From assembly GCA_008632985.1 (NCBI GenBank), contig QPGO01000032.1, forward strand, positions 431,330 to 495,329: 64,000 bases of DNA, written 5' to 3'. The notes beneath the pieces were generated by a model. It did not search any database, was not told where the DNA came from, and worked only from the letters and a program-made list of their open reading frames with translations. The position numbers and the translations under genes are program-made. Positions 3,261 through 55,406 of the stretch are shown one piece after another. This DNA is from Psammoneis japonica (Eukaryota). Position 1 is the stretch's first letter. Every line of letters begins with the position of its first letter.

Positions 3261-3269
3261 ACCAACAAA

Positions 3270-18130: not shown

Positions 18131-18558
18131 ATCATCTTGCTTGGGTGCGTCGGTTGCCTGCGGCTTTGCTTTAGCTCTGTTGCGTCTGCTCTTTTTCCCC
18201 ATGGTCGAATCAATTTACTTCGAAGCGCTACAGTATATCGTTGTACAGTAGTTGTGAGTTGCAGTGGATGGAGAACGCTCTGAGCAGAGAACGGCGTCGC
18301 TGATGTCGATGTCATTGCCGACTCCCTCCAGTCTGTCTTTCAGTCGGTTTCTTATCTCATTCCCGTACACCGTACGGACATTACTGAACATCACTGTACA
18401 AATATACACTACGTAGGAATACGTAGATCACCGTAAGTCAAGAAGATGCGAACAAAATCGAACGAAATCGAACGCACCCGGAAACGGCAGATCGCGCGGT
18501 GCTTTCTTGCTCTCACAATTTCCTCGCAAAGCAAATTTTCGCAACCGCTGTAAAAACA

Positions 18559-27256: not shown

Positions 27257-27634
27257 GACAGTACTCAACCACAAGACGAGGTTTCTTTGTTGTCGATGAT
27301 GGCCGAGAGGAATGAAAATTCCAAAATTATTGATTTTATTGATGATGGGTTTCTGAGGTCCGCGCGACAAAGCGCGCGATAGAAAATCTGCGGCCAAGGA
27401 ACATTCACATTACCTTCACGTCCGAATACCATCATTAAAATTTCAAAATTTTTCGATACGTCAGAAAAAACATCACAAAAATCACAGCAACAACATATTA
27501 CAGTATCATCGCAAGTCCATCGTCCATACAGAAAGCAGAGCATCAGTTGCTGATAATTGGTAAACACCGAAAGCCCCAATCGCGAGGAAGAAGCAGTTGC
27601 TGCCATTACCCGTTGCCAGAGAAACAGAGGAAAC

Positions 27635-34460: not shown

Positions 34461-34759
34461 ATCGCAAATCTGTATGGTTTATCCATGATCCATTTTGAAC
34501 ACTACTACATGTTACGAACGCCATGCATTTTCATTCGCTTTCTTTTAATCGTTGAACCTTGTCGAATTTGGGAAATCGTTGAACCTTGTCGAATTTGGGT
34601 TTTCCTGCATTCCTGCATCCGCATACGGCATGCTTCTGCTGCTAGAATTGACCGTATCTTCGTCGTTTCACATAGATATTATGTGCCCAGTGCTTCTTAC
34701 ACGGGCTCGTTGTTACTAGACCTCGCAGGGAACGACTGATTTGACGATCACATCGTAGC

Positions 34760-36507
34760 TGTCTACTACTATGGTGTAATGCTAAGTAGGCATGCCCTAT
34801 CACTCTTTGGAGTTGGAGTAGTCAGTATAAGCTTTTGAGCACATGCAGCTTACATGCAACGTTATCGCTGGCTCTAAATCGTTACTTGACGTGCTGCCAT
34901 TTGGGATTTGTGACCTGTACTATAGGGAGTGACATACTTCCCGCTTTCTCTTAGAAGTACTAATGCGTTGTTTCGAGAATAACTTTCGTCATAAACAATC
35001 TATGCTACACATCCGATAGATCATCGATAGAACGCTTTGTTCCACTCATTGTTGTTTCACCATGAACGACTTCAGGCTTTTTGGGCGAAGGTGATGATCT
35101 TCGATTGGGCCCCCTTTCAAATATTTCTGGTTTCTGCCTGATAAACTCGTACAGCAAAGAGGTATGACCAAGAACATTGACATCGTGGTTCCGAATACTG
35201 GTTAACGCATAAGGCCAAAGAGCAGCAGGAAAGCCGACTTCGTGGGTGTCGGTACACCAATCCCAATAACCCACCGAGTTTCGGCTGCAGTAGTAATCAA
35301 TGTCGTCGAAGATCGCTTTTTGTTGTGACGTAACGGCAAAGGTGTCTCCGAAGCTTGCATGAACAAGAGTTTTGTTTCTTCCTTCCGCGAGCATATTTCT
35401 GATTCTGGATGTTACGCGCAATCCCCTCACATCCCGGCAGAAACGGATCTCCTTCAACGTAGAGTTACCCTTTAGGCCTTCTGTAATTACAGTGACACCC
35501 TGTCTTGTAATCGACGGGCAATAGCTCAAGTCCAGTTTCTCCAGTGACTTATTGATCAGGAGCATGTCTTTCATGAGAATTGCACCTTCCAAACCAACGT
35601 CGCTGCCCTTCAGCGACAAAGTCTTCAAAGTGCTATTGATGAACATGAGAGATTGCATCATTTCCGCAAATCCTCTCCCTGCTTTACAAGGAAGCTTTAA
35701 ATCGATCAGTGACTTGTTCACCGCGAGAGCCTGAGCAAGGGGACGACACACTTCATCCCCGAACATTGTCTCCGCGATGGGATCATCCATAAGTGCTACA
35801 GAATGCAGTTGCAGAGATTCAAGGCTCTTGTTTTTAGCTAACGCCTCACCAAGTGCCTTTCCATCAGCCACGCCAAGCGAAAAGTCATTCAAGCATAGAA
35901 CTTTCAACGAATGGTTTTTCGACAGCGCAGCGAAGAATTCAACTTTTTTGTTCTCGGCACCTCGTCTGCTTTCCACCGAACCGGGGTACCTTCTCAATTC
36001 GAGTTGTTCCAATGTATGATTAACCACCAATGCTTCTCCAAGTGCACACCAATCTTGGTGCTTGATCAAATAGTTCGACAATGTTAACCTCTTCAAAGTG
36101 TTGTTATCTTTGATTGATGCCCACAACGCCATGAAACTAGGTGCAACACTACGGTAGGTAGAAAACTCCAAGCCCTCCACAATACATGAACTCAACAGCT
36201 GCTCCGTAATCATCTTGACCCCCTCTCCATTGTACCAATAATTTTTAAACCTCAATGTACCTATTTGCTTTGGAACCGGACCTACCTTCAAGGCAGATGC
36301 TACTTCTTCCCATTGTATGTGTGCATGGATGCGAGCAGGTTTGAGACAAATATCCTTGAACTTTCTATTTCTTGCGATGTCACACAGAAACTTCCCCCTG
36401 CCGTCCTCAGACCTTAAGGAAAATTCTGCGCTCATTCTTTTATCTATCTTTATGGATTGGAATCGGAATTACAGCTGATGTGCGTTACTGACTACAGTGC
36501 TGGCCGT
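34760..36507. repeat. Left arm of a ~1.75-kb inverted duplication (partner 53429-55153) containing the LRR gene plus flanks
   Basis: Coding sequence, 3' flank (cactctttggagttggagtag.. / ctactccaactccaaagagtg) and 5' flank (tgcgttactgactacagtgctggccgt / acggccagcactgtagtcagtaacgca) are reverse complements. Confidence 0.92.
35005..36435 (-). CDS. RNI-like (NLRC3-type) leucine-rich-repeat protein, 476 aa
   Basis: Repeated 'L.EAL..N.SL..L.L' units (NNTLKRLTL, NHTLEQLEL, NKSLESLQL, NSTLKTLSL). C-terminal 'ALWP.AL..........LLYEFIR.KP' motif common in diatom LRR proteins. Confidence 0.85.
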   Translation of the reverse strand: MSAEFSLRSEDGRGKFLCDIARNRKFKDICLKPARIHAHIQWEEVASALKVGPVPKQIGTLRFKNYWYNGEGVKMITEQLLSSCIVEGLEFSTYRSVAPSFMALWASIKDNNTLKRLTLSNYLIKHQDWCALGEALVVNHTLEQLELRRYPGSVESRRGAENKKVEFFAALSKNHSLKVLCLNDFSLGVADGKALGEALAKNKSLESLQLHSVALMDDPIAETMFGDEVCRPLAQALAVNKSLIDLKLPCKAGRGFAEMMQSLMFINSTLKTLSLKGSDVGLEGAILMKDMLLINKSLEKLDLSYCPSITRQGVTVITEGLKGNSTLKEIRFCRDVRGLRVTSRIRNMLAEGRNKTLVHASFGDTFAVTSQQKAIFDDIDYYCSRNSVGYWDWCTDTHEVGFPAALWPYALTSIRNHDVNVLGHTSLLYEFIRQKPEIFERGPNRRSSPSPKKPEVVHGETTMSGTKRSIDDLSDV

Positions 36508-36529
36508 GAAGTACAGTGTAGACTATGAT

Positions 36530-37675
36530 AGAGAGATGCTGGTTGAATGTTGAATGTGATTGCGTGATGCATGATGGCACCATGATGCATCAGCAGGAAA
36601 CAGAAGAATCCACGGAATCGCAATCGCACGGAATGTGTGCGCGACTCCGTCCATCAAGAGCAAGACCTCAAAACGGAATGCGAATGACACGGAGCAAAAC
36701 GAAAAAAGCCTCATCAAAATCCGCCTCACATTCCGACTCATGTGCCACATTCCGCACCCAGGATGCAATTTGCACATTCCGTTTCAACATTTCGTTTGTT
36801 AGAAAGAGGCCATTTATTTTACATTCCATGATTTGCCATTCCTTTTGCCACGTTCCGTTTGTGGATTCCTTGTGCTCAATCAAAGACACAGAATGCAATG
36901 GTTTGACTTTCCGCGCTGCGATCAGCGTGTGGCATGCCAGCCACAGCATGTGATGTGGAGTGCACAGCAAAATGAAGTGAAGTTCTAAAATGGGATTGTT
37001 GTGCTGCTGCTTTTCCAGCCATTGAACAACAACTCTCCTGCTCCGCCCGTGCTGGTGCTCTGCCTGCCTTTGCACAACCCCCATCGCTTTGCTGCGCACC
37101 ACTCAGCCGAGTCTCAGAGTGATGTGCTTCTTTTTCTGACAATCTTGGTTGCCCACTGGATGACAAGGGGTGCTTCAACCTTTCCAAAACATGAGCACAA
37201 TGTGACAAATTAAAAAGTGAGCAAACAGGTTCAAGGTTGCAGAAAAAAGCCAAAAAGATGGCACACACGGGCTGTTGATGGGCACGACTGCCCCCACACT
37301 TCTCTGTCACCAGAAAATGGAGCAGCCAGTGATGCGGCGCCACACTCTCAGCTGCAAAGCGGCTGCACTTGGAATCAGAACCCTGTTGAAAATGCACCTC
37401 AACAGCAAAAAGAGAGAAGAAAATGAAAGTGCAAGCGAGCTTTGCTTGAAGTTCCAAGCAAAATCCCACCACAACTTGCCATCAAGCACGCCACAATTGT
37501 CACCCATCAAACCATGCAATCATGTGCTTGCTGCTGCCATTGTTTGTCATTGTTGCTTTGGATCCCACCGCTGTTGTGTTTCTTCATTTTGTGAGAGACG
37601 AGCGGATGAGAAGCAAGAGAAAAAATTGTGTCCAATGCAAATCCTCTAAAAAAACATGCAGCATTTAACGGAGTT
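36530..37675. repeat. TpA-depleted degenerate repeat, left flank of the nested element
   Basis: TA becomes rare from about 36530. Clustered CGGAAT/ATTCCG words at 36610-36870. No assignable ORF. Confidence 0.5.
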
Positions 37676-37950
37676 CGTCTGGTGGGGCAACAATCCGAGA
37701 TGCGAGCCAGCATGGCAAAATTTCCGTCACTGCGGAAAGTCGGATTTGTCCCATGTTGTTAATTTCCTGATGCTGACTCTGCACGCCGGCGTGCAGACAA
37801 CTGATGTTGTGCATTAAACCAAGCCACAATCTCACACGCTTAATGCCTGAGTTGATTTGTGCAACCCAATCTTGTCACCTGCCATGTGGTTTTTTTACCA
37901 TGTGGTTCGTCCCACTTGTTTTCATGTCATTCGTTTTTGCAACACGAACA

Positions 37951-40900
37951 ATGGCGGCCCCCTTCGCCATCGGAAATGATTGCCCCATGTGCGGCAAACG
38001 TTTTCTCCCAGCTGGTCTTTAACACCACCTGAGAGCTTGTCTTCCCTGCAAACTGTCCTTTTCTCAAAGCCTTCACGACGTTTCTTCCCGTCAATCCGAC
38101 CCCGCTCATGGCAAACACCCCCAAACTGGAGAATTGCACGAACAAGTGGATGTTGCCACCTCTTCCACCCCCAGCTCTCCTCCACTTGAATTCATCGCTG
38201 CAGGCCCCAATGCCAACGTGCTTCCAACTCCACAAGGTTGCACCCAGACACAGTCCCCGGCCGTTGCGCTCCAATTGTGCACCTTCACATGTCCCAGAGC
38301 TGCGGGGTTCCCACAACAACTCCGTTCTTCCCCACGTTCTTGACGATGTTTCAGACTGCCAGTTTCCAGACCCCGAAGAATTTGTTTCCCACACCGAGGG
38401 TTCTGCTGCCAATGTTGCAGAATCTGGCCCTTTTTCCACACTCAATCAAGTTGGACACCTCTCCGCGGACGAGGACCTTGTTGTGCCCAAAGCACACAAC
38501 TGCAAAACGACATCCATGGTCCGCATGTTGAATTTGTGCTGCTCCAAGGGTGTCCCAATCAGTCAACAGATGAATTGCTGAGAGACGGGTTCCAGTCCTG
38601 GGTGGGACTTTTTGTGACATTGGGCCCGCAGAATTCTACGTGCGAGCTCCGCAGTAAAATCATTGAGCAATGTGGACACATGAATGATCGCCAACAGAAA
38701 AAGAGGCAATTTTGCGAACGTGTCTCCTCCTCCACACTTGAAGCACATTCTTTGCAGCATGCCCAGGTGTGTTCTTTAGACATTAAAGAATGCACCCAGC
38801 GCATTTTTGTTGACACAAGTGCAGATGACAGAAAGCCTTTGGCTTCGCAAAACAGGCAGTGTGGAACAATTTTTTACAATGGAACACGTAGAAATGTATG
38901 TGCGAAACATGCAACGGGTGACAAAAAATAATCACGTCACAGTTCAGCAGTGCGAGGTCCCACCCAGAGCTGGAACACGTCGAGAACTGTGCAGCAGGAA
39001 TTCTCCAGTGGTGGGTTGTCCATCACTGGACAAATTCCCTCTTCTCGAACTTTCCTGTCCAAGCTCAAGTTGATGTTGCCTGGCGTTGTGCCCCCGGTGC
39101 TGCAGCGCATTCCTCTTGAGTCTGTGTCAATCGTCAACCAATTCAAGAACGACCCGCCTCAGGAGCTCTCTCCCGGCATCCCTGTGCACGACTTTTCCCT
39201 CCAACTGCAGGATCTGTTCGACGATCCCCTTTTTGCCGATCTTTCAAATCTTGATGTTCCTCCCGATTCACGTTGGTCTCAGGTGCTCTCCAGTGAACCC
39301 ATGTTGGACGAGAATGGTGGTTGGAAACTTTGTGACGATGCCGAAATGAAGGACGGTGAAACTTGCAGTGACTGTCATTGTGGCTGCATTTTTCCTGCCG
39401 TCCCCGGTTCCTTTCATGTGTTCGTTTTGCATTGCACCGACAAAACCGGGAAAGGACAGGTCGCACCTCATTCGATGGAGCCATTTGTTTTCTCTGTGAC
39501 TGTCATCAAGTCATGTGCCCACCGTCGTTTTGAAGCATGGCGTCCTCTTGGTTTCGTTCCGAAACACACAGGTTGCAAAACAAAGAATCCTGTTTTCGGG
39601 ATGAACGTCAGAAATTACCACCAAATTTCATCTGTCCTTCTGGCGTCTGTAATTCAAGCGCAAGAATCACCTCCTGTCTGCCGAGTCTGACTGGGCAATC
39701 AGCATTGTCACAAGTGCATTGTTGTCCACAGCGCAACATTGTTGGGCGATGCTGTTAACGCCGCACAAGTGACCGGCCGTGTTTCTGGTTGCGAAAACTC
39801 CCGCCGCATCAGTCATGCCTGTCACACTTCCTGGACCAACAGCAACGAACCTTTACATTGCTGCAGGTGCTTTTCCCAAGAACTGATGGAGCTTTTAACT
39901 GTTGCAGCACTTGGACCACCACCCGGTTCCACCGACAGTCCATGGCATCTTTGTGTCGAATCACAAATCGACACAGTGATGTCTAAGACGAAAGCCAATT
40001 CAATCCGTTCCAAGGCACGCAGTGCAGTCATCCGGTGCGTGAACATTTGTTCCACCACACTTCACAAGGTGTTTGGCCAACACACGGTTGACAATTCATT
40101 CTTTCATCTTCAGATGGGAGACAATCATCAGGGTGTGTTTGGGTTTGCGTCCCCTGATCCAATGCACATGTTCCAAGGCGGCACAGTCCCTCAGATGCTC
40201 TCTGTCATTCTCAATGATTTGCCCGATTCCTCCCAATCCCAACTGAATGATTTGGCAAACCGCACATTTGGATCTCAGTGGTGCAGACCAGGTCAGAGAT
40301 CTAACTTTCCACCGGTTGTCTTGCGAAATGGATTTTGTGCCTTGTCTGGTTTGACCTGCGACCAAAAGATGGGAAAGCTGTTTGCGTTGGCACTGATGGG
40401 TCAGACCAAGGAGGGACGGAGCATGCTCCGTCTTCGTTGCCATCCTGATTTTGACAAGACAAAGAAAAAACGTGCTTCTAATTTCAATGATCAGCCTTCA
40501 GAGTGTGAGTGCAAAGAAGAATGTGAATGCGAAGAAGAAGACAATGATGGTTGTGTGCACGAAGAAGGTGAATCCGTTTCCAACAACCACAACGATTTGC
40601 TTGGTGACGACGATGAGTCCACATGTGATTCAGACAAACGGCAACCAAATCCACAAGATGACGAGGAAGAGAGTGATGAGGAGGAAGTTTCCCCTGGGGA
40701 TCAACCACCGCAGGCCTCAACATCCTCGGTTGACAAGCCTTGCACTGACAAAGAATGCAACCACGATGATCCTGTCCACAACGAACATCTGGAGGATCAA
40801 TGTCGCCATCATGGGCACATGCACATGTGTCCTTGCACGATGCAGCTGACAGCAGCTCAAGCTCACATTTGTCACAACATTGTGTGGATGCAAACAAGAA

Positions 40901-42330
40901 ATGTCAACCCAGATCATCAATTCTGCATCCCAAACCATGCCGATTCCTCCGTCTCTGAGATTTTTACATGCTGTGCGGATCAACGCCAGTCCCTTCACAC
41001 AAAGGCAAATTCTCACGACCCACCGTTTGTTTGTTCAGAAATTGAAAAGGAGTTGCCTCTTGCATTCCGCCAAAGGCTAAACAGCCTGTGCGACGACCTG
41101 GAGCCGGCTTGTTGTTCAGTGGACTGTGACGATGTGGAACACTTGTTGCTGTTGCTCAACAAACTGTTGTTGTTCCACTCCTTCTGCAGCTGCGGTTCTT
41201 CCCTGCACTCATGTGCCAATCGAGCTGACATTGAATGTCGCCTGGTGCTTCTGATGTTCGAGCTGCGCAGCATGATCAATCATGGCGAAGGCACACATGG
41301 ATGGAAAACATCCAAGTTCCACGACCTGCTGCACTTGATCGCCGCTCTTTGTCGGTTGGGTGTGTTTTCTAGATGGGATGCCACCACCGGTGAGTCTGGT
41401 CTAAAGAAATGGGCAAAGCTCCCCAGTCAGACCTGCCAAGCATTGCAAGGCAAAGAAGAGTTCACACGTCAACTTGCAAGCCGACTGTGCGAGCAGAGTC
41501 TTTTGGAGAGAGCCAATGATTTGATTGTCCGTCCACATGCAACTCAGGATTCGTCTGTGGCAGCATCATTTCACCACGACCTTGGTCACGCCATGTTCAT
41601 GGTCAACCGAGTTGAAAAAACATGCTGCGAGTGCACCGGCACCTTGGAAATGAAAAGGGAATGAAGCGCTCATCTGGAGCTGGACGTTGTTGATTTTTTT
41701 TGCCATTGCAGCCAGTGGGGAATCCGGCGCAGGCACGTTGTTGTGCATTCCAAGTCAAATCTACAGGCCGAACACGAGTTGCGCTTTCGGGTGCACCCGA
41801 ATTGCCGCGAGGGTGGGCGATGGCATGACTTTGCATGTGTTGAATGCAGAAATGACGATGGAACCAACAGCTTGTTTCCAATGCAACTGCGTGGTTTCAT
41901 TCTGAGTGACGACGAAAAAGAAGTTGTTGCTTTTGGGAGAACTTGTCTGAAGCAAAGCGCCATGGAAACGAAAATGAGCAAGAACGGTTTGTCCCAGCAT
42001 TGGCAGATGGAGGGCACGTCACCCAAACGCACCTTTGGGTGTTGTCAGAAGAACATGCTCATTGGCGGTGGAATGGGCGTTGCATTGCCCAAGACAGCTC
42101 TTGTTGACCGGGGCAAAAAATGGAAGAAAGGCCAGAAACGGAAAAAAGCTGTTGAAAACAATTTAGAGGAAAGTCAAAATGTGACCAATTTGTCCCTGTC
42201 CGGCTCCATGTCCGATCGAGAGAAGTCTGATGACAAGATTTTGTTTGTCCTCGACATGAAGAATGAGTGGCCGGAGCTTTTTTTAAATGGTGGCTTGTGC
42301 TCGGGAGGCAGGAGTGTGTGTGAAGTTTGA
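37951..42330 (+). pseudogene. Plavaka/CACTA-like DDE transposase, disrupted and Tyr>Cys/His hypermutated
   Basis: N-terminal CxxC..H zinc knuckle. Motifs (HC)TDKTG, MEPFVFS..AWRPLGFVP, DPMHMFQGG, GWKTSKFHDLLH, WDATTGESGLKKWAKLPSQT and FRVHPN(C)REGGRW(H)DFA. Broken into at least 6 ORFs. Confidence 0.8.
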
Positions 42331-42337
42331 CAACACA

Positions 42338-44832
42338 TCACAACAAAGTGAGTCCCCTCACATGATTTTCTGGAATTCTGTCAACATTTTTTTGGTGCAA
42401 TTCCACAAGGTTTGAGTGCGACCACACACTCTCCGGGTCGGTTGTGTGATTGCATTTTGCAACAAAATCCTCCAGTCTGCACCATTTGTTGACTGAGAAA
42501 AATTCGATCCGATGTTTGAATCCGTGTGTCTTGGCAGCAGCAGTGCACAATTCCTTGTGTCTCATCGGCAAAAAGACTGGGCCGTTGTCATGGAGGAAAA
42601 TGAGCTCCTCTTTCAAACCATGTTTCCTTGGATGGTGCAGGTGACACGATGGCTGGTCCATGCACGCCATGGTCACTGACATTTTGTTGTTGCGCATTGG
42701 TCGCCGCGCTGCCTCACATGTCTTCCGTGCCTCATCTAGTTCGATTCCACTGGAATGTTCAACGGGAGAACTCTCTGCCACCATGTCAACCAGGTGCCGA
42801 TAGAATCCGTTTTTATCATCATCACTTAAAGCAGCAAATGTGGCATTCTCAGCTGGACAATCACCAAGGTGGGCACCAGATTGGATGCACAAATTTCCTC
42901 TCGCGCTTCCAAGCTGCACTGCTTTCCTTGTTTTTTCTGGTGTGCCCATTTCCTTGTGTTTTTTCCCGTCCGTCATCAACTGACGAGCCGTTTCCTTTGC
43001 TTCTTCCGTTGAGTTTGGATTGCGCAGCACCCTGTCTTGTTCTTCCAAAAAACTGATGAACAGATGTGGGTGATCTTCTGTTTTGGGTGTCCCATCATGC
43101 AGGCTCTTGTTGACGTTCTGCCACCTGAGATGGGAGGAACAGTGCACCTTGCTGAGGTCACCACCACATTTTGCTTCTTTCACTGATCGCATGATGCACT
43201 TGAACATCTCACCCCTCGGCCCAGTCAAAGACTCGAGTGTTCTCTCCCAAGCTGGCAAGGAGATGGTGGTTGACATGGACCGAACTGGCAGAGGTGTTCC
43301 GTTGCATTCCCTGCAAACCAACCCCTTGCACTCTGCAATGTGTCGGAGATGAACAGCTCCGTCGCAGCACTCACAAAACAGAATCCACAGCCACGCGATG
43401 CACCCGAGCATCATCGTTCGAGTCTTGCCCTCCTTCATCTTGATGCACCTTCCTTTGCTGCAGTCGGACGCGACGTTTGTTTCTGCCAAAGACAGAATCT
43501 TTTCCACAGCCTTGGCTGTTTCTTCCTGGTTGCTGAGTGTGTGCAGGTCAATGGCATCGGAATGTTCCTGCAGTGCTGCAATCAAGGACTCCGCATGAGG
43601 ACAATTGACATTTAACTCAAGCTTCTTCAGTTGGCTGTCAACAATCGACCTTGTGTGCGACAAGTGAGTGAAGCAGCTGTTTCTTGCAGGCACACAATTC
43701 TCCAATGGCTTGTCGACATTTTTTTGGGACAGAAAAACGGACCAGTCCTCAACCAAATGCGAGGCAAGTGCGATGTGATCGTGGTCAATGTCCTTCCCAT
43801 TGCTTGCATCTGAATGCCAAGTCGCTGCTCCAATTGAGGAGGTGTGTGCATGGAACTCTCTTAGAACGGCCCACAGATCGTCTGGGCAGTTCAGCCATCT
43901 TTGACATTTTGAGGCAACCCTTCGTTGGAGGGAGCTTGTCACACCCTGTTGCGATCATTGCATTCCATCCAGCATCCCACAGCAAACGCCATGCACCACC
44001 ATCGCGGAGAGCTGGAGCACCCACCTGCGCAACCTTGGAGATGCGCGGTCGGTTGCTCCCGGTGGGCATCCTGGCATTGCCACTCCCGCACCACAGCTTC
44101 TGCTCCATTTCCCACCAGCTGCATTGATCCCACCGTCCATGGAGCAAAACTTTCTGCATTTGTCTGCTTTTGAAAGGGTGACAAACTCATCACCGAGTCC
44201 AGTGCGTAATCCATCCTCAACGGCACTTGCAGTTTGAGACAAAAGGTCCTCATTTGCAATCTCCGGTGGCAATTGAAGCATTTGAAAAATGGGTTTGCCG
44301 TCTGCAGGAGTGTCAACTCCAGTGACATTGTGCTCATTGACGACGATCGGATCCCTTGGGCGCAACGAGGAATGAGGATGATTGCACGAATTTGGCATCA
44401 CACGAACGTCACCGCCGAGATTCGATGCCAGTTTCTTTGCAGACTCCAATCCAGTCACCGCGAGCCAGTTCACGTGCAAACAGAAATGCACCTGAATCTG
44501 GCATCCATGCTTTTTCTCGACAAACAACAGCTGTCTTTTCCATGAAGTTTTGATCTTTTGCAGATTGGCAAGATTGAAGTCGGGGAACAACTGGGCTTGT
44601 GACTTCTTCTCGTCTGTTGGGAAGAATGAGGTTGTTCCCCAACACTTGTTGTCTTGCCCATTCGGGGTGTCCAGGGGGTTGGCACTGTTTTGCCCAACAA
44701 CTGAAATTTTTTTCCTTGAGAAGGCCGGCCTTGCTGATTTCCCCAGTCTTGCACTTGCTCCTTCTGCCCATGCCCACCGCAGTTTGCATCAATGGCATCT
44801 AAAGCTTCGTCTGGCTTGTGGTCCCGGTCCAC
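42338..44832 (-). pseudogene. Transposon-borne accessory ORF of unknown function (534-aa segment plus upstream fragments)
   Basis: Long ORF 42338..43942 with a single Tyr in 534 aa. Upstream fragments 43955..44590 and 44470..44832 lie on the same strand. Inside the TIRs. Confidence 0.55.
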
Positions 44833-45147
44833 GAGAGACTTGGCATTCCAAGCCTTTCACAGTGGCATCTGACAGCACATGGGACACATTGCACAGCTTT
44901 CTAGATGTTCAAAGGAACATCTTGTGCAAACCTTTCCGTCAACACCATCAACTGCCTGCAACGAGTTTGCAACCTCACAAGCGGCAGTGACGCGGTTGCT
45001 TCTTCATGGAGTGAGAGCGATGCAGTTGATTTTTTCAACGCCATGTGGGTGCAAAACAACCAGTTCGTGTGTTTTGTCTGAGACAAAGTCCTTGATCTAG
45101 AGATCAACAAAATCCAAGAAGTGAGCGACAACCAAAACGAGAAGCCA

Positions 45148-46464
45148 TCACAAAAAATCTAAACAAAACACGCACCTCCGACAATGTTGCTCCACAATCT
45201 TCACAAGAAGGATGAATGCCCACCTGGTTTCTGTTGCGGTGCAGGTGTGCAACTGCAGATGGATGGAACAGAGGCATTTCCTCCAACTGATCATTTCGCA
45301 GGCACCTGGCAATCCACACTCTTTGCCAACCACAGCCCAGTTCTCACAAAGGCAACGGGCCACCGTCGCATCGACAGGCAGAAACACATTGCCAACGTCA
45401 GACAGCTTTTGATGGAAGTGAGTTGACGATTGACTGAAAAACGAATCTGTCAAGATTCTGTCATTGAAGTGAGATTTGAACCCAGTGTCCATCGACATTG
45501 AGCAATGGACACATTCCTTGGAAGCCCAATTTTTGCAACGATTGAGAGCAAGTGCATCGGCGACCATGTGATTTGGATTCGAAGCAACTGTTTGACGGCA
45601 GTCAACAGTGTGGACGTTGAATCCGTTTTTGACTGGTGCCTTGCATGCTGTGGCATCTCTGCACTCCTGGGAGGATGCGTCAGTCGTCCCGTCACCAAAG
45701 ACAAGGCCCACAACCAACATGTCATTGTTGACAACGTCATTCCCGGTGGTGCAGACATTGGGCAAGTCGGATGATTCATCACGACATCCGAAGCAATGGT
45801 TGTCCAACACTGCTTGATCAGCAAATGGTGGCTCGTCGCCTCCAAAGCGGTCCAAGCAAAGTCGAAAGTCTGCTGACATTTCCTTCATTGATTTGACCAA
45901 AAGTCCCTCCACACGGGAACCAACAGAATTGCCACAAACCTTGTCAGCAGGTGCGCTCTTTTCCAGTGAGTCATCGTCTTGCACGCGCTTCCTTTTCCTG
46001 GCAAGAGATTTTCTCCTTGCATCAGCCTGTCTTCGTCGGGTTGTCTGCAGTGACAATTCCTCTGCAACCTCCCTCAATGCAGATGACAGATGTTTGTTGT
46101 TGTGCACCGTCAAACAGTCACACAGCGCTCTTGGCCGGATGGCCAAAGCTTGTCCCATTGGAAGTGTGCCAAGAAATCCATCAGCATCGAGAGTGCGGAA
46201 CAAATGATTGATGCCAGTGGGAGACAGTCCGACAGAAGCTGCCTTCTTGTGTGTCAAGGTCCTCTTGCTGACATGCTGACTGGGTTGGAAATGCACATGT
46301 TGCCTGGAATGTTTGTTGTTTCGGTGATCAAGTCCTGTCAGAATGGGTGGCAGACGACAAATGTGGTGACAGCTGGAATGTGACAACGACATGGCAGGAG
46401 AAAACGGATGTTTGTTGCAGAGTGGGTTGCAACCAAGCAGAAGAAAACAGCAACACAGATGCAA
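45148..46464 (-). pseudogene. Transposon-borne accessory ORF of unknown function (438 aa, Tyr-free)
   Basis: Long ORF with a basic NLS-like tract (RRKSLARKRKR) and an alpha/beta-looking C-terminal half. Inside the TIRs. Confidence 0.45.
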
Positions 46465-48499
46465 AGAGGTTGTGTGACATTGTGAACACGTGGGCGTGTT
46501 CCCGGAGCATCACCTGGGACTGCAAAAAAACATGAAAGAATTGTCCTCAGCAATGAAAATTGAACTGTACAGAATCACTCTCTCACCTGGGTGACAGTGC
46601 GGAAAATTTGGCAAAAAATCAATTCTTTTTTGACGACAGTGTGTCGATTTATGTCCTGATTGTGTGCAATCAAATCAACAAGTTGAAAGACAAACATTGA
46701 AATTTCGTTCTCACTTTCAGCGACACATGACAAACAAATGGCACGACAGAATCCCCGGGCACAGCCCCACATAAAATTTCGATGCAGTGACCCTGCAGAA
46801 TCAAAGCCCCAACTGCCACACATCACAATCCATCAACAGAGAATCGGCGCTTCGATCGAACATGTTGTGTTCCAGTTGCCAACAGCACGACACACTGGGT
46901 GGCCTCGGATGCCTTGCATCGACCAAAGGCATCCTGGAATGTGTGTTTTCTTGCATGAGCTGCAGGATGATGTGGAGATGGCTGTTTGTTCACAAACAGA
47001 TGTTGCCACATGTGCTCAATGCTTTGAGAGAAGCAGCGAAGCAAGACAATGTGTTGAGAATGTGGAGGCGCGACTTTGGTGATCCCAGATGCACTTTGAT
47101 GCGGAAAAACCGGATGAAAAGGCTGTTGCGTGAATTGCGAGAGGTGCACATTGAGGGAGAATTTTGGACGATGAGTTTGCATGAAAGACTGGATGAAAAC
47201 AGAACTCACATCGACCGCAGAGCTTTCAATTGTTGCGTCGCAGTGGGGTGCATGGATGGTGACAGATTCAACCAGTGCAGCTTGCAACCATTTGTGAAAG
47301 GGTGGATGAAAAAGGAAAAGATCCATTGCGACCCGCACATGGACAAAGTGACGTTGACGACAGATTTGGTGGACTTGGACTGGAGACACCGGTGTGCGTT
47401 TCGCAGCAGCTGCCTTGCGCGATTGTGTTGGCTTGCCTCAAAGGAGACAAAGAATGCCACCACCCGTTTGTTGTGTGTGCTCTGCCGCCTGGAAGAGATG
47501 GTGAGGTGAGACTGGGAGGAGAAACCCATGTTAACGTGATTCATCTGGAAGAACATGACAATGGTGACAGAGCCTCCTGGCCGCACGCAGAGGGAACTCG
47601 CCCCCCACTGGTGAGCGGAGACACAGCAGTGCATGAAAAAGCGCTCTTGGGGTTGTGGATGTTCTGCACAGGAGTGCATTCAGCCAGACATGGTCACAAT
47701 GGTGGATTGTGCGAAGTTGTGGAGCGCTTGGGCGAATCGCACAAGACGGCGAGAGAAGAAGAGGCAGTTGACAATGAGGAAAACAGAAGTGTGAGAGCAA
47801 GGCTGGGCGATGGCTGAGGGCAAAGAGATGAGCCTGACAGCCTGGATGGTGCAAAATCAACACAGTGCATGCCACATCATGGAAATGTGCAACGGACCAG
47901 TGAGTTGGGAAATGCCGCAGGTCAAAACGGTGCTCTGTTCTTTGTGGCCGGGCAAGAACAAGATCAGGGCAGCTCAGAGCATGGTGACCAAGACGGCATG
48001 GCGAGGTGTCGCATGCCAGATAAAAAAGCAAAAAGCAGTGTCTGGACTGCAGCCCTTTCTTCTGTGAAAATCTGGACGAAAAAAAAATGGCTGGAGATTT
48101 GAAAATTGTGGCGTGCAACAGTGGGGAGCGCCATTGTTCTTCACGCGGATCATGAAATGCACAGTGAACGGATGATGCAAGGCTGACAATGACAAAACAT
48201 GCCATTCAAAAGGAATGTAAAATTCATCAATTGATGTTTGATGGTGAGTGCTTTGAAAAATTTGGCATGCAACAAAAGGGAGTTTTTAAATGGGGGCCAA
48301 CGGGCATGCTGGCAGGCGCACACTCAGGACTGGGTTGGCACAGAGGGAGGAATTTCATTGACACAAAACACGTTGGAGAGTGGGTGAGCAAACATGTCGG
48401 CACAAAAACGATTCATCAGGTGCGTGCGTTGTGGCATCATTGCACAAACGGGTTGGCAAGCTCATGCATGTCTTGTGACCTTCGTTGCAGTTGGCACCC

Positions 48500-49692
48500 A
48501 TGACACGGCAGAGACAGGATCACACAATGTGGAGGTTGCAGGAATGTCCGTCGTCAGCTCAGAGGCAGCAAGGAGAAAGTTTGTGGACGGCCAGATGACC
48601 AACTGCGTTGCGATGGCTGTGCACCCAAAGACAAAATTTGTGACACACGACGATGTCGAGTTGGCGCTCAGGAGCAAAATGCAGAAAAAGGTTTGCAAAC
48701 ACCTCAACGTGGACGCAAGTGACTCTGCAGTTTGGTGTGAAGCGAGCAAGGAGAAGGTGCGGAAAAGACTTGACAGAAGAAGAAACAACAGGCAGGAGGT
48801 TTTTAGAAAGAAGTTGGTTGGCAAGTGCTGCCAGGGCTGTGCGTGGATGAGATGGGCCAGTGTTCTCACAAATTGATTCTTGCTCAGAAAAAGCTAGATG
48901 CGATGCAATGCCAAGCGTCAAAGACGTCAAAAAGGGCAGGGCGTTGCCTCAAATGCACTTCTGGTTCTTGGAAAATTGCTGCTTCCTGGCAGCAGGAACA
49001 GAGCACTTTAAAACAGCAGACAGCCAAGGTGTCTGCGATTGGCTGACAACAAGCACGGAAGCTTTTGCCAGGCTGATGTGTGACAACTGCTGCGAAACAG
49101 CCGTGTCGGTGGCAGAGATCAAAGAGCAATTCGAACAAGGTCACGTGGCACAGCCACCAAAACAACCCGTGGCCACCAAGCACACTTTCTTGGGGAAAGG
49201 CTCAAAATGAAATCAAGGATGGAACCAGGATGGGATCGACAAGCACAACAAACTCTACAATGCTGTGGCAAAGGAGAGAGCAGATTGCGGCAGAGTCGAT
49301 GCACAGTGCCTGCAGACAAAGAAATCAGAGAGCGCTTGTGGCAAGAAAAGAAAGAAGAAAAAAAGGACAGCATGAGTGGATGGGCTGCTCCAAAAAATGA
49401 TTGGAGCAACAGCAAGGAGGAGGCCGAAGGAAGGAACGATGAGCAAGGGAGCAAAGAGGAAGAAGAAGAGGAAGAGACTCCAGGAGCAGCAGCAACCAAC
49501 AACAGCGCTTCAACACAAACGGGATCTCAACAAGGAGGAGTGAACAACAACACACAGAAGCAACCGAGGGTGCAACGAGGACGCGTGAGGAACGGCGGCG
49601 GCATTTGCCAGTGTGCAGCAGGAAATGATGGTGGCATTGATGTCAACCGGGAAATCCACTCAGTTTGGGAGCTGCAGCAGTGTAGAATGTGA
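48500..49692 (+). pseudogene. CACTA-type accessory (TnpA-like) ORF with one intron
   Basis: W..SKEKVRKRLDRRRNN segment joined by an intron at 48821-48887 to ..TTSTEAFARLMCDN..K(H)T, followed by an acidic tail. Resembles second ORFs of such elements (from memory, not searched). Confidence 0.55.
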
Positions 49693-50040
49693 AAAGCATC
49701 CAAGTGTTGCACTGTAAAATGATGGGAATGTTGTCCATGTGCTTGTTGGATTTAAAGCAGGGTTTGAAAGCAATGTGAATCGGGGGCTGTCACAAAGGCA
49801 AATTGTCGCACGGTGAAAAGTGGACGAGTGTTGCACTTGAAAATGTCGGGAACATTCTCCGCATGGTTGTCACATTTAAATTTTCTTGTGACACATGACA
49901 AAAAAATTTAGATGATGAAGCAAGATTTCTGACACCGCGTGTAAAAAAATTTAAATCAAATTTAAAAAAATTCAGACATGTCGGGCAAGAATGTCACGCG
50001 CGAGTTCGCGCGCAATGTCAGATTGTTGCCCCACCAGACG

Positions 50041-53000
50041 TTTTGCCAGGCATTGTCAAACAAACATCAAACATGACCACAAATGTTTTCCACATCAGTC
50101 ACTCCCAAGGTTTGAACTGTTGCTTAATTTCTTCTTTTAAAAGTTTGTGTTTGAGTGTGTGCCACCTTGCAATGAATGAGACAAACGCAGATTTCAGGGC
50201 TCTCATTCCAGCTCTGTTTGAGGACTTCAACCGTCACTTCTGCATTGTCACGCCAATTGCAACAGAGAATTTGATGCACTGCAAATGCAGAAATGCACAA
50301 ATTGAACAACATTTTTCATGACCAAAAGATGACAGAAAAACTCAAAGGCAATCCCCCCTTGAAACACCCCCGTCCCCCGTTGATCTTGTTGTTGTTGTTG
50401 CTTGAGTCATTGCAGCAAGAGAGAGAGAGATGAATAGAAAGAACTCAAGCAGCAGTGTTGCAAACCATGCAGATGCTCATCACTTCAGCTGCAATGTTCT
50501 CATTCCATGCTGTCTGCTGAATGACACAAAGCACAGTGGCATCACAACACACAGATGACAGAAAATGTGAAAACACGTTGACCTCTGTCCTGTGCACAGA
50601 ATGCAGGCATGTGCAGAAGACACAGGCTTGACATTCTGTGTGGTTGCAACAGAATGCAAAGAGGCATCAACACCTGTCTTGGTGGCAGGAACGGAATGTG
50701 ACCATCCCACCCTGATTGCTGACACTGCAGCGTGGAATGTGAGGGCACATTCCATGGAAAAGTCAAAAACAGAGTGCAAAAAAGGCCTCATTTTCTGCAG
50801 AACAAACAGAACGTGGAAAGAAGCATGCACTCCATGCAATTCCATGCAACTCCATTGGTTCTTGTTTCCTGTGATGTCATGGTGCAGACCATGCCTTTGC
50901 AAGCCATTTGTGCGGGGTGCTTGTGGCATCTGTGCTCATGATTCTGACACACAGACACCCACAACCTGCCCATTCTTGCCACACTTTTCTCATGTTGCCA
51001 GCACTGCCACGCTGCAGACCACAGCCAGGCCTTTTGGACATGGCAGGGCACAGGGGGGGCATCATTTTCCATTGATCGTGCCACGCAGGAGGCTCTGCAT
51101 GACATGCAGCATGCAAGCCAAGTGGCCCAGCAAAAGCCCAATCTGTGAATCGCGAACAATCTGTGTGGTTTTGTGCACAACCCATGTTGAGCACCATGTG
51201 ATGCAAACACCATGCATTGTTTTCATTCGCTTTCCTTTCTTGATGGTTGAACTTTGTCAACTTTGAATTTTCCTGCATTTCTGCATCAAACAGTGTGCTT
51301 CTGCTCCTGGAGTTGACCGCATCTTTGTTGTTTCACACAGACACATGTTGTTTGTTGCTTCTTTAAACAGTCAGGCAATGGACAATGGGCTCACATCATG
51401 TCCATCTGTGTCTCCCCCCTGCCCCCTGCCCTGACCCCAAATGGACCGGAAACAGATGGGCAAGACGAAGTCGGGGTTTGGGGCTTGCCACTTTCAAAAT
51501 CACCAAATTCACAAGGGGATCTTTCACACAAAATGACATCCAATGACTTTCACACACTTTGGAACATCACAAAAGTCACTGTCAACATGAAACATTCCAA
51601 GTTTTGCATTGCCTCAGTCATTTTCTGGTTGGGGCGCCATTGACTCCTGGCCAATCGATTGGCTGTTTCTCCATTTTGAGGTCATTTGTTTTAAAAACAT
51701 TTGAGTGCCAGCTGCACTTGTCTTTCATTTGTTGGTCTGCATCTGCAATTGTGGCATGACACTTTTTTCCATTGAAATGATGGGCACTTGGATTTTGTGC
51801 TTTTTGAGCACATGCTTGCCTTTTGTTCAAACCAGGTGGATCATGCACAAACAATCCAACCCTCTTGTTTGTTTCTGTGCCTGACAAGGACAATTGCATG
51901 GTGCAAGCCCAGATTGTTGCCATCTTGTCAAAAATCATTGTCCGATGATTGCAGTCTTCAGCTGCAATGCCTTGCACAGTCACTTGCAAGAGGAGCCTGA
52001 GAGCCTTCTTGGTGGGTCCCTCTCTTTTGTTGTTGTGTGCTCCTGAAGCAACCAAGGAACCCACTCAATGCCAATGATGTGCCCTTCATTTTCCTTTCTT
52101 CAAGCTTCTTTGTGAGACAAAGTCCTTTCTTGTTGTCCCTCTGGACAGAACCACATGAACCCAGTTGTCTCTGCAGTCAAAGTTGCTGAGAAAACCAGGC
52201 TCACAGTTGTCTCCCCTCCCCCCCTGGAGCTTGTGGTGCAAAGTCATTGTGTTGTTGCACAAAACTGGGAACTGGGTCAGCTGCATTTTTCTGACTGATT
52301 CTTGGAACTCTCTTGCAAATGAAGGCCATTGATTGACAATGCATGACCAAATGTGAGACAAGCCTTTTCCTCATGATGAGATGTGCCCAAAGACAATGAA
52401 CTCAACTTGTGAAACACAGGCTGACCTCACCCAATGACCATCAGTCCAGACTTCATCAACTCAAAATCATCTAAAAAATCATCTTCTGACAGCTCTAATT
52501 TCTCAGAAAAGCCAACAGTGTTGCTGGCCTCCTTCATCTCCACCACGTTCTCATTGAGGCTCATTGTCAGAGAGGGTGACAACCGCAAGAAAGCTTGAGA
52601 AGTGGGTCTGCATGCCTGTCAATTTGTCTCCAGCTTGCTTGATGTGAGCATCTGGACAAGCTGCCAACAAAATGTCATTGGACATCTGATCTTGAAAATC
52701 CACATGTTTGCACCTGGTGTTTTGCTTTTTTCCATTTGAGGAGATTGTTTGAGGTTGCTTGCTCGGAGCAGGACAAGGCCAAGGCCAAGGCCAATGTGCT
52801 GTTGAGGGGGGGGGGGGGGGGNNNNNNNNNNNNNNNNNNNNNNNNNNNNNNNNNNNNNNNNNNNNNNNNNNNNNNNNNNNNNNNNNNNNNNNNNNNNNNN
52901 NNNNNNNNNNNNNNNNNCAATGGCGCAGCAGGCTGTGTTGCTTGGGATGTCACTTTCCAGTGTCACCAGGCCCAGATGCAACCGTGCGCTTGTTGATTTC

Positions 53001-53190
53001 CTTCACATCATCTGCAGCCAACTTTTGAGTTGTTCAAAAGCATGAAAGAATCTCACCCACTGGATCATCTTTAAATCAGTGGTTTCCTCTGAGTTTGATG
53101 AAGCAGTTCAGCCATTCTTGACAGCTTGATGCCAGCCATTGTTCAAAGTCTTTGCGGACAAACAGCAGATGATGATGGATGCTCTTTTCG
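50041..53190. repeat. Degenerate repeat depleted of TpA and CpG, right flank of the nested element
   Basis: About 8 TA in about 3.1 kb, nearly all TTAA/CTAA. CG is sparse and TG/CA is very high. Confidence 0.6.
52822..52917. other. Assembly gap (96 N) preceded by a poly-G run
   Basis: Run of N in the sequence. Confidence 0.99.
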
Positions 53191-53498
53191 ATTAGTGGCA
53201 TAGAGTGTTTTATCTTAAATGTACATGTTCATGAAGGCAATGAGACACAGCCGTTCAGCGAAGCGTCCAGTGCGTCGTCTCGTTGTTCGTCGTGGTGTCT
53301 TGTTGGTCCTGTGAGTCGTCACCCATGAAGAGCGATCATTGCGGTGGCGCGCTAAACGTTATTTTCGGGGGCGGCAGTCAGTGCGGCACATAGCCATACT
53401 CCAATACATGCATCCCTTGTTACTTGTTACGGCCAGCACTGTAGTCAGTAACGCACACCAGTTGCAGTTCCGATTCCAACCCATAAAGAAAGAATAGC

Positions 53499-54928
53499 AT
53501 GAGCACAGACATTTCCATAAGGTCCGAGGACGGTAGGGAAAAGTTTCTGTCTGAAATAGCGAAACATCAAAAGTTCAAGGATGTTTATCTCAAACCTGCT
53601 GGCATCCAGGCAGATATACAATTGCAAGAAGCAGCAAATGCCTTGAAGAAAGGTCCGGTTCCAAAGGAAATAGGTACATTGAGGTTTGAAAACTATTGGT
53701 ACAATGGAGAGGGGGTCAAGATAATTACGGAGCAGCTGTTGAGTTCGTGCATTTTGGAGGGCTTGGAATTTTTTACCTACCGCAATGTTGCGCCTAGTTT
53801 CATGGCGTTTTGGGCGTAAATCAAAGATAACAACACTTTGAAGAGATTAACATTGTCGAACTATTTGATCAAGCACCAAGATTGGTGTGCACTTGGAGAA
53901 GCATTGGTGGTTAATCATACATTGGAACAACTCGAATTGAGAAGGTACCCCGGTTCCGTGGAAAGCAGGCGAGGTGCCGAGAACAAAAAAGTTGAATTCT
54001 TCGCTTCGCTATCGAAAAACCATTCGTTGAAGTTACTACGCTTGAACGACTTTTCACTTGGCGTGGCTGATGGAAAGGCACTTGGTGAGGCGTTAGCTAA
54101 AAACAAGAGCCTTGAATCTCTGCAACTGCATTCTGTAGCACTTATGGATGATCCCATCGCGGAGACAATGTTCGGGGATGAAGTGTGTCGTCCCCTTGCT
54201 CAGGCTCTCGCGGTGAACAAGTCTCTGATCGATTTAAAGCTTCCTTGTAAAGCAGGGAGAGGATTTGCGGAAATGATGCAATTCTCATGTTCATCAATAG
54301 CACTCTGAAGACTTTGTCGCTGAAGGGCAGCGACATTGGTTTGGAAGGTGCAATTCTCATGAAAGATATGCTCCTGATCAATAAGTCACTGGAGAAACTG
54401 GACTTGAGCTATTGCCCGTCGATTACAAGACAGGGTGTCACTGTAATTACAGAAGGCCTAAAGGGTAACTCTACGTTGAAGGAGATCCGTTTCTGCCGGG
54501 ATGTGAGGGGATTGCGCGTAACATCCAGAATCAGAAATATGCTCGCGGAAGGAAAAAACAAAACTCTTGTTCATGCAAGCTTCGGAGACACCTTTGCCGT
54601 TACGTCAAAACAAAAAGCGATCTTCGACGACATTGATTACTACTGCAGCCGAAACTCGGTGGGTTATTGGGATTGGTGTACCGACACCCACGAAGTCGGC
54701 TTTCCTGCTGCTCTTTGGCCTTATGCGTTAACCAGTATTCGGTACCACGATGTCAATGTACTTGGTCATACCTCTTTGCTGTACGAGTTTATCAGGCAGA
54801 AACCAGAAATATTTGAAAGGGGGCCCAATCGAAGATCATCACCGCCGCCCAAAAAGCCTGAAGTCGTTCATGGTGAAACAACAATGCGTGGAACAAAGCG
54901 TTCTATCGATGATCTATCGGATGTGTAG
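53499..54928 (+). pseudogene. Inverted paralogue of the LRR gene at 35005-36435, with nonsense codon and frameshift
   Basis: Near-identical protein. TCA>TAA at 53817-53819 and a 1-bp deletion near 54282 relative to the left copy. Confidence 0.85.
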
Positions 54929-55406
54929 CATAGATTGTTTATGACGAAATTAGTACTTCTAAGAGAAAGCGGGAAGTATGTTACTATAGAGGTCGCAAAT
55001 CCCAGATTACAGCACGTCAAGTACGCATATTAGAGCCAGCGATGACGTTGCATGTATGCTGCATGTGCTTAAAAGCTTATACGGTACTGTCTACTCCAAC
55101 TCCAAAGAGTGATAGGGCACGCCTACTTAGTTATACAGTACAGTAGTTAGACATCAGGTTTGGTAACATCCTCAAATCAGTCTAGTCGTCTCGGTGTGAT
55201 ACCTGGATGCGATGGGTCATGCTTCGATTCCGACACGCGGACACCAACAACCTCCGCCACAGATTTTTCTCACTTCGTCAGTGCAAGGAGACAACGCGAC
55301 ACGCGACGAAGGCAAAGGCAAAGCACAGATAGCCTGAAAGGGGACAAAGCAGCAGCACATTCTATTCATTAGTCAATCGATAATTACTTCTTGTCTCAAT
55401 TCAACC

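Follow-up and report, generated by a model that had tools for sequence, protein, structure and literature searches.

Why should a stretch of algal DNA lose nearly every copy of a single dinucleotide, TA, while the genes beside it keep theirs? The question is raised by a 64,000-nucleotide stretch of the Psammoneis japonica genome (GenBank assembly GCA_008632985.1, contig QPGO01000032.1, positions 431,330 to 495,329 of the forward strand), here called the window, in which a 12,365-bp transposon at 37676-50040 had been proposed, from the letters alone, to carry a transposon-restricted hypermutation of TpA to TpG or CpA, running counter to RIP (repeat-induced point mutation). Our follow-up finds the signature to be real, and we consider it likely, with a probability of roughly 70%, that transposon and other non-genic DNA of this diatom is under targeted TpA>TpG/CpA hypermutation like that of the alga Bigelowiella natans, probably by a deaminase of the TadA/ADAT type. 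The direction of change, its coding neutrality, its strand symmetry, its sharp confinement, a half-site rule for the flanking bases and its progress with insertion age can all be observed at the locus. The original prediction knew of no description of such a process; TpA>TpG/CpA hypermutation is, however, reported in a preprint on B. natans (Mettrop et al., bioRxiv 10.64898/2026.01.13.699255, version April 2026), so that the present case, rather than being the first description, extends the process to a new lineage, where the example is far more complete.

The extent of the depletion was established by comparison with 41,751 bp of host DNA in the window, where the observed/expected ratios (o/e) are 0.57 for TA, 0.98 for CG, 1.15 for TG and 1.14 for CA, bearing out the claim that the adjacent host sequence uses TA normally. 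All expected counts given here derive from the host rate of 1638 TA per 41,751 bp, and assume that the ancestral elements resembled the host in composition. On this basis the element holds 58 TA against 485 expected (Poisson P 6e-134), and the segment 39001-39600, singled out earlier by a manual count of no TA and about 30 CG, has 0 TA and 31 CG. Between 37001 and 50000 the o/e values are 0.07 for TA, 0.63 for CG, 1.64 for TG and 1.55 for CA. The depletion is wider than the 12.4-kb element: it covers an island of 16.7 kb (36530-53190, 73 TA against 654 expected) and three further blocks (1-1074, 1633-3481 and 8447-10313), for which we counted 1 TA against 39 expected in 1-1000, 5 against 67 in 1751-3450 and 5 against 74.5 in 8501-10400. 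Restriction to the element was thus too narrow a view, the neighbouring sequence at single-copy depth being equally TA-free. The four older TA-poor blocks, which include the 50-53 kb region, have a TA o/e of 0.03 and a CG o/e of 0.19, and across the TA-poor regions TG and CA stand at 1.55-1.84. In the host, the distance from one TA to the next has its median at 16 bp and never exceeds 242 bp; within the TA-poor blocks it reaches 1408 bp. The island flips abruptly to normal TA density on both sides, its left edge lying about 25 bp from the end (36507) of a flanking inverted duplication. The features on which the argument draws are the following.

36530 to 53190, no strand: TA-poor island, delimited by TA counts and abrupt edges.
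37676 to 50040, plus strand: Plavaka-related DNA transposon of 12,365 bp, multi-copy, recognised by 26-nt terminal inverted repeats (TIRs), contig breaks, depth and composition.
37676 to 37701, plus strand: left TIR of the element, from the inverted-repeat pair and the sequence as read.
50015 to 50040, minus strand: right TIR of the element, on the same grounds.
38033 to 38581, plus strand: upstream N-terminal part of the transposase, across an insertion, from alignments to relatives.
38584 to 38981, no strand: miniature inverted-repeat transposable element (MITE) of 398 bp with 25-nt TIRs, within the transposase gene, 8 TA, from its inverted-repeat pair and depth.
38932 to 42330, plus strand: transposase frame of 1133 codons with 2 internal TGA and 1 Tyr, from phmmer relatives and alignments to two of them, P0121 and P0122.
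42338 to 44788, minus strand: second long frame, 815 codons, one internal TGA, 1 Tyr, no credible Pfam family.
45148 to 46509, minus strand: third long frame, 453 codons, 0 Tyr, from analysis of open reading frames (ORFs).
36530 to 37675, no strand: older TA-poor sequence left of the element, at single-copy depth (exact Logan contig over 36792-37704, depth 71).
50041 to 53190, no strand: older TA- and CG-poor sequence right of the element, with 50014-51481 at single-copy depth and an N gap at 52822-52917.
1 to 1074, no strand: TA- and CG-poor block running off the start of the window, by composition.
1109 to 1632, no strand: MITE of 524 bp with 44 TA and 25-nt TIRs (96%), from inverted repeats; ends TTAA.
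1633 to 3481, no strand: TA- and CG-poor block with 5 TA, by composition.
8447 to 10313, no strand: TA- and CG-poor block with 3 TA, by composition.
34734 to 36507, minus strand: left copy of a leucine-rich-repeat (LRR) inverted duplication, 87 TA, from BLAST.
53429 to 55182, plus strand: right copy of the LRR duplication, 92 TA, from BLAST and the Pfam family LRR_6.

TpA loss is confined to four blocks, of which one contains the TIR-bounded multi-copy transposon and the others are without annotation. The two TIRs are 26 nt long and 92% complementary. Our read evidence comes from one public run containing the stretch, in the form of k-mer (Logan) contigs, which hide rare variants; these contigs break at 37704 and 50014, that is, at the element ends, and the summed depth inside is 500-2000 against about 60 for the host, so that the element must be multi-copy. 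Two further runs covered too little of the island to be of use. Within the window itself, a self-BLAST found no second copy of any TA-poor sequence. A scaffold gap of 96 N (52822-52917) falls within the island near its right edge, and the right junction thus rests on scaffolding.

The missing TA can be accounted for as TG and CA. Relative to host per-base rates, 37001-50000 has 717 more TG and CA taken together and 667 fewer TA and CG; the corresponding figures for the four older blocks are 593 and 594. AA, AT and TT are not depleted. The familiar decay of methylated CpG, with CG loss and TG/CA gain, is also present (CG o/e 0.63 in the element, 0.19 in the older blocks), but it accounts for the loss of CG only, not for that of TA. 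The change is the opposite of RIP, as had been proposed: TA is lost, and TG and CA are gained.

To which side the change points can be read from the transposase. The frame 39691-41664 has 0 Tyr in 657 amino acids and the whole frame 38932-42330 has 1 in 1133 codons, while a 538-aa part of the second frame (42338-43954) has 1, in agreement with the Tyr-free transposase segment and the nearly Tyr-free second ORF described originally. A phmmer search against 1.84 billion representative sequences returned 853 transposase relatives at E<=1e-3, mostly of 1000-1400 amino acids, and among the family representatives listed Tyr makes up at least 1.5% in 144 of 150, mostly 2-4%. At 11 columns where Tyr is conserved among 132 relatives, the window protein has Cys at five, His at two, Tyr at one and other residues at three, whereas normal family members that lack Tyr at such columns mostly have Phe or Leu. 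Aligned pairwise with five closer relatives, the window protein has Cys or His where they have Tyr at 5 of 8, 8 of 18, 11 of 25, 5 of 11 and 10 of 16 positions; control pairs of normal proteins show this at only 0 to 2. The motif HPNCREGGRWHDFAC had been offered as an example with three former Tyr sites, and two of these hold: the first C stands in a column that is Tyr in 84 of 122 relatives and the H in one that is Tyr in 84 of 118. The last C does not stand in a Tyr column; the commonest residues there are Met, Leu, Thr and Ile. This direction, from Tyr to Cys or His, also upholds the proposal of a process changing A:T to G:C at TpA on both strands of transposon-type DNA.

Other members of the family are also short of Tyr. 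P0121 and P0122, the closest relatives of the window transposase, are Tyr-poor (1.1-1.3%), and four others (P0234, P0253, P0255 and P0264) have 0 or 1 Tyr in uninterrupted frames of 382-1290 amino acids from public assemblies (P0234 and P0264 in ENA). The intact frames of P0264 and P0234 measure 1200 and 1290 amino acids with one Tyr each; P0264 represents a cluster of 8 member sequences, and of the 31 positions at which its nearest normal relative has Tyr, it has His at 12 and Cys at 11. Given such Tyr-free relatives, the TpA signature occurs beyond this locus. We also collected 36 metagenomic loci that encode distant transposase relatives (20-41% identity), none of them encoding P0234, P0264, P0255 or P0253, and all 36 have a TA o/e of 0.44-0.74 in the homologous region. 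A pattern search with a three-sequence alignment gave 345 metagenome and 30 viral-contig matches, among which no relative was confirmed. Because the relatives are Tyr-normal and the metagenomic loci TA-normal, the ancestral state was TA-normal, with TAY codons (Y, pyrimidine) having become TGY or CAY. Nine of the 36 loci (L010, L011, L016, L020, L021, L022, L024, L026 and L032) have a CG o/e of 0.00-0.13 yet a TA o/e of 0.46-0.60. Elsewhere, this transposase family commonly shows methylation-type CpG decay but no TpA editing.

The assignment of the element to Plavaka, a CACTA-like group (PF18759), holds only through relatives: PF18759 is precomputed for P0234, P0270 and P0273 (three of the six proteins listed), and the window protein matches two of these bearers, P0234 (E 3.3e-29) and P0270 (E 2.4e-25). 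A Pfam search of the window's own ORFs matched 0 families, and when 13 relatives were scanned only one (P0139) gave a Plavaka match, at 23.3 bits, under the cut-off of 26.3. The 26-nt TIRs and the length of 12.4 kb are in line with Plavaka, but the TIR begins CGTCTGG rather than CACTA, and the flanking triplets, GTT and TTT, form no exact duplication. Hypermutation may itself have changed the termini, and the missing CACTA ends are compatible with descent from such an element. Searches of PDB sequences with the second and third frames of the element gave no informative match.

Could the composition have been inherited instead? An inherited or adaptive origin would mean that elements were selected to avoid TA, for instance by a nuclease cutting at TA or UA, and spread in that state, with no mutation now taking place. 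The Tyr-free relatives P0234, P0255 and P0264 with their intact frames of 1127-1290 amino acids are what one would expect of such elements, as is the agreement between P0264 and P0234, which are 42% identical and carry the same choice of Cys or His at 10 of 14 former Tyr columns where both have one or the other; furthermore, 2368 of 6110 Logan pieces on the island are at least 95% identical to the window copy. The codon phases, however, speak for mutation. Where TA spans codon positions 2 and 3, only TG is synonymous, and the excess per 1000 codons is 26.7 for TG and 21.9 for CA; where it spans positions 3 and 1, only CA is synonymous, and the excess is 15.7 for TG and 22.5 for CA. Synonymous and non-synonymous routes are used about equally, and what we see is therefore neutral mutation and not selection. 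Conserved Tyr has given way to its single-transition neighbours Cys and His rather than to the conservative Phe of normal relatives. TA is just as absent from non-coding sequence and from sequence at single-copy depth, a MITE and two stops interrupt the window copy, and some other copies hold TA where the window has CA (37140 and 52388). Nor are the open frames of the relatives surprising, since a change of TA to TG or CA makes no stop. The original prediction had named inherited composition as an alternative; codon-phase neutrality together with the TA-normal metagenomic relatives leads us to reject it, along with selection, and as an explanation of the locus we regard it as improbable.

The same property of the change has a further consequence. 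A change of TA to TG or CA cannot write an in-frame stop and destroys TAA and TAG, so long ORFs in such DNA are no evidence of function, and its victims keep long frames while losing every Tyr codon. In the transposase frame there are 3 stops (2 internal), against 28 and 51 in the other two frames. About 90% of the TA in the element has been lost while its CG o/e is still 0.63; from this, and from the preserved frame, it follows that TA loss has outpaced methyl-CpG decay several-fold and left background change far behind.

Not all TA are lost alike. The survival of TA, relative to the host, depends on the bases on either side as follows.

TTAA 0.70; CTAA/TTAG 0.31; CTAG 0.18; GTAA/TTAC 0.11.
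ATAA/TTAT 0.046; CTAC/GTAG 0.042; ATAG/CTAT 0.035.
GTAC 0.014; ATAC/GTAT 0.008; ATAT 0.

A Poisson half-site model with independent hits on the two strands accounts for all ten context classes, with a per-strand survival of 0.06, 0.12, 0.40 and 0.83 when the base 5' of TA is A, G, C and T, respectively, and it improves on uniform loss with a likelihood ratio of 119.7 (3 degrees of freedom). The element and the old blocks, taken separately, both follow the rule. On the purine strand T-A-Y is hit hardest and T-A-G next, with T-A-A nearly spared; RTAY (R, purine) is erased and TTAA is largely kept. Both strands are hit equally, the TG fraction being 0.495-0.509 in all four TA-poor regions tested, and tracts of TG or of CA beyond the host level were not found. 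The end state looks like the outcome of many independent single-site events.

This context dependence bears directly on error-prone repair synthesis of the Pol-eta type, suggested earlier as a candidate, in which a polymerase recruited to silenced chromatin would mutate A in WA motifs (W, A or T). Pol-eta-dependent A>G mutation has two WA hotspots, and TA is one of them, which speaks for the idea. The other WA motif, AA, is not depleted (o/e 1.27-1.28 in the TA-poor regions against 1.15 in the host), AG is not enriched (0.91-0.98 against 1.00), and a process strictly specific for one dinucleotide, with a preference for a 3' pyrimidine, fits such a polymerase poorly. We give it very little credence.

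When did the change take place, and what was exposed to it? Ordered by insertion age, the oldest sequence is the most depleted (TA o/e 0.03, CG o/e 0.19), followed by the element and then by the MITE nested within it: the element without this MITE has 50 TA in 11,961 bp, the MITE (38584-38981) 8 TA in 398 bp. The latter has a summed Logan depth of 36,000-47,000 against about 60 for the host, which implies that the genome holds hundreds of copies, and other copies of the element skip 38563-38982. A second MITE (1109-1632) keeps its 44 TA though nested in a TA- and CG-free block; its TIRs begin and end with TTAA, as duplication of a TTAA target would give. This MITE is a ready natural reporter for ongoing TpA editing. 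Since the nested MITEs retain TA, the TA-poor state was not imposed at once on everything in the region, which leaves two readings: the process acts in episodes, or it passes short elements by.

The flanking LRR duplication (ribonuclease-inhibitor-like) provides a natural comparison. Its inverted copies, of about 1.78 kb and 92% identical over 1784 bp, bracket the whole island and differ by 51 transitions and 41 transversions, yet both have normal TA (87 and 92); the excess of TA<->TG/CA differences between them is at most 1.7-fold per opportunity and was not counted as a signal. The sequence 50014-51481, on the other hand, is TA-free at a single-copy depth of 60.5. With the LRR pair untouched and single-copy sequence hit, duplication as such is not the trigger. 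Here the process departs from RIP of ascomycete fungi, with which it shares a resemblance to genome defence, confinement to mobile DNA, transitions only and a dinucleotide preference. RIP needs duplication, while here the 92%-identical 1.8-kb pair has been passed over; RIP turns CpA into TpA and enriches TA, while here TA stands at an o/e of 0.03-0.07 and TG/CA at 1.55-1.84; and RIP creates stop codons, which the TpA process cannot do. The fungal setting that the original prediction had in mind (RIP, DNMT5, crosses) does not apply to the host, which is a diatom: the asparaginase exon at 28321-29199 is 80-93% identical to diatom proteins, and all species named among its top hits are diatoms. 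According to PMC9998398, the function of diatom DNMT4 is not known.

A neighbouring ORF at 26105-27409 on the minus strand has retroviral-type aspartyl protease domains (Asp_protease_2 and gag-asp_proteas) and normal TA, and may be either a host DDI1-like gene or an unedited retroelement remnant.

The main rival to a deaminase is a mutagenic mark on TpA. According to this explanation, the loss of TA would be the by-product of an epigenetic mark on the palindromic dinucleotide, either 5-hydroxymethyluracil (5hmU) or 5-formyluracil (5fU) made by a dioxygenase of the TET/JBP type, or N6-methyladenine; mispairing or decay of this mark would lead to T>C or A>G, in the manner of 5-methyl-CpG turning into TpG and CpA. 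The observed pattern does resemble methyl-CpG decay, in that a palindromic dinucleotide is changed on both strands equally, site by site and without tracts, to TpG or CpA, in silenced DNA; the same blocks also lose CG, and the loss deepens with insertion age. Methyl-CpG decay itself differs in removing CG and not TA, and 36 of 36 metagenomic relatives keep normal TA. 5-Formyluracil mispairs with G, and fungal Plavaka and KDZ transposons are associated with TET/JBP genes. Dinoflagellates offer a precedent: there the 5hmU produced by a TET/JBP homologue is concentrated in repeats and has a silencing effect on transposons (PMC11572971). At the present locus, a chromatin mark that acts only by region sits badly with the 524-bp MITE, which lies in a TA-free block and has 44 TA, unless this MITE inserted very recently. 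TA loss would also have to run several times as fast as methyl-CpG decay, a high rate for a by-product. We know of no such TpA mark in diatoms, none is visible in the assembled sequence, and Pfam scans found no TET/JBP domain in the window or the element. All in all we judge a mark unlikely, if worth keeping in view. The window does contain a host 2OG-Fe(II) oxygenase (18427-19554, plus strand) with an OGFOD2-like domain; by Pfam it is not of the TET/JBP type, and it is no evident thymine dioxygenase candidate.

A more mundane concern, also anticipated in the original prediction, is that the TA-free sequence is an artefact, either of a modified base misread in transposon DNA or of polishing errors piled up in repeats. 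The N gap inside the island and the fact that the supporting run is probably the source sample of the assembly, with no platform on record, leave some room for this. However, the k-mer assembly of that run returns the identical TA-free sequence at full single-copy depth: Logan contigs match 36792-37704 (913 bp) and 50014-51481 (1468 bp) with 0 differences at depths of 71 and 60.5, compared with 59.4 for a 10-kb host contig. Strand-specific misreading would predict two versions at half depth, one all CA and one all TG, whereas TG and CA interleave. Tyr-free relatives are present in other public assemblies, and in another alga mutation-accumulation lines sequenced on Illumina acquire this signature de novo. 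An artefact is unlikely, and we see only a slight chance of it. About 6110 contig pieces lie on the island at 80-100% identity, and transitions predominate among the places where they differ (A>G 588, T>C 633, C>T 778 and G>A 772, against 114-174 for each transversion). The roughly 40 variants viewed include alternatives that retain TA and others that retain CG, but they are too few and too selected to quantify.

What kind of process would leave such traces? We propose that A>G on either strand would convert TpA to TpG or CpA at a rate far above that of any other change, with ordinary decay of methylated CpG running alongside. Most likely, adenine in DNA would be deaminated to inosine by an enzyme of the TadA/ADAT type directed to silenced foreign DNA, and the process would be of the same kind as the TpA-only hypermutation of integrated viral DNA in B. 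natans. Episodic action would explain the TA-bearing young MITEs inside TA-free blocks. TadA and ADAT2-ADAT3 deaminate an A that follows U or T (U33-A34 in tRNA), and the UAC in the TadA substrate agrees with the T-A-Y preference at this locus, which we take as a mechanistic lead and not as a claim of membership. The established substrates of TadA and ADAT2-ADAT3, and those of fungal A-to-I mRNA editing, are RNA.

The closest precedent is the B. natans work (Mettrop et al., 10.64898/2026.01.13.699255), from the text of which we draw the following. In mutation-accumulation lines two viral insertions mutate at about 6e-7 per site per generation, some 1000 times the background, and 230 of 231 de novo changes are A>G or T>C, according to the authors all on TpA. 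A region derived from a nucleocytoplasmic large DNA virus (NCLDV), single-copy and silent, was mutated in 11 of 15 lines, and 6 lines had mutations in a virophage region. Across the genome there are 124 clusters of 1-kb windows poor in TpA and rich in CpA+TpG, and DDE-endonuclease and reverse-transcriptase domains are over-represented among its 324 low-TpA coding sequences. As the agent the authors suggest a DNA adenine deaminase of the ADAT2 type, naming a B. natans homologue as candidate and citing DNA editing by amphioxus ADAT2. In this text diatoms are not mentioned, the word "trinucleotide" does not occur and none of the four uses of "motif" concerns flanking bases. A description of TpA hypermutation in a diatom was likewise not found in the literature searched.

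The likeness is considerable. In both cases only TpA is changed to TpG or CpA, on both strands, in foreign DNA lying beside normal host sequence; the target can be single-copy, without dependence on repeats, and the process is apparently not constitutive. When the B. natans cut-offs (rho TpA at most 0.43, with rho CpA+TpG at least 1.52), which are species-specific, are applied here, 17 of 64 windows qualify, 13 of them in one run from 40001 to 53000. There are also differences: the host is a rhizarian there and a stramenopile, the diatom, here; the events are de novo there, and here we see an end-state signature; viral insertions are the targets there, and DNA transposons together with unannotated non-genic sequence here; and CpG loss accompanies the signature here.

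Several points weigh against the reading that we favour. The hypermutation is deduced from its end state, and a mechanism shared with B. natans is presumed. Depletion is modest there (rho TpA 0.45 in the NCLDV region) and near-complete here (0.03-0.07), and the RTAY/TTAA rule is seen only here, the B. natans text giving no flanking-base rule to compare. The lack of strand-coordinated tracts is unlike a processive single-strand deaminase after a single burst. Pfam scans of 64 window frames found no candidate enzyme in the window, with no deaminase, TET/JBP or transposon domain in any TA-poor block, just as the original prediction had noted that the responsible gene is not evident there. The polarisation rests on protein comparisons and not on copy-by-copy counts, about 40 of some 3,900 variant places having been viewed. 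Finally, the expected counts depend on the assumed host-like ancestors, and the supporting run, as said, is probably not independent of the assembly. It is with these points in mind that we stop at the probability given at the outset.

One could also speculate, tentatively, that we are looking at an old defence shared across the SAR supergroup, in stramenopiles and rhizarians alike, with one conserved enzyme that follows the R-T-A-Y half-site rule, and that some transposase lineages live on without TA or Tyr. The latter idea is suggested by the intact frames of P0264 and P0234, which at 42% identity share 10 of 14 Cys/His outcomes. Such a defence is possible rather than probable; if it exists, it would amount to an arms race fought through codon vocabulary, the targets of which are not simply killed, as no stop is ever written.

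For annotation, the finding is a caution, since gene finders will call long Tyr-free "proteins" in such DNA while homology and Pfam searches fail on it; conversely, the ratios of TA and of TG+CA offer a cheap, annotation-free detector of silenced mobile DNA. The contrast between T-A-Y, which is hit, and T-A-A, which is spared, gives a sharper enzyme fingerprint against which deaminases or base-modifying enzymes can be tested, and base-editing research would be interested in a DNA adenine editor from nature that has a defined motif. Comparative genomics also becomes possible, by looking for genes common to the two species with the signature and absent from algae without it. TpA-specific hypermutation of foreign DNA has so far been the subject of a single preprint on one rhizarian alga; the diatom case puts the process in a second major lineage, one that is among the ocean's most important primary producers.

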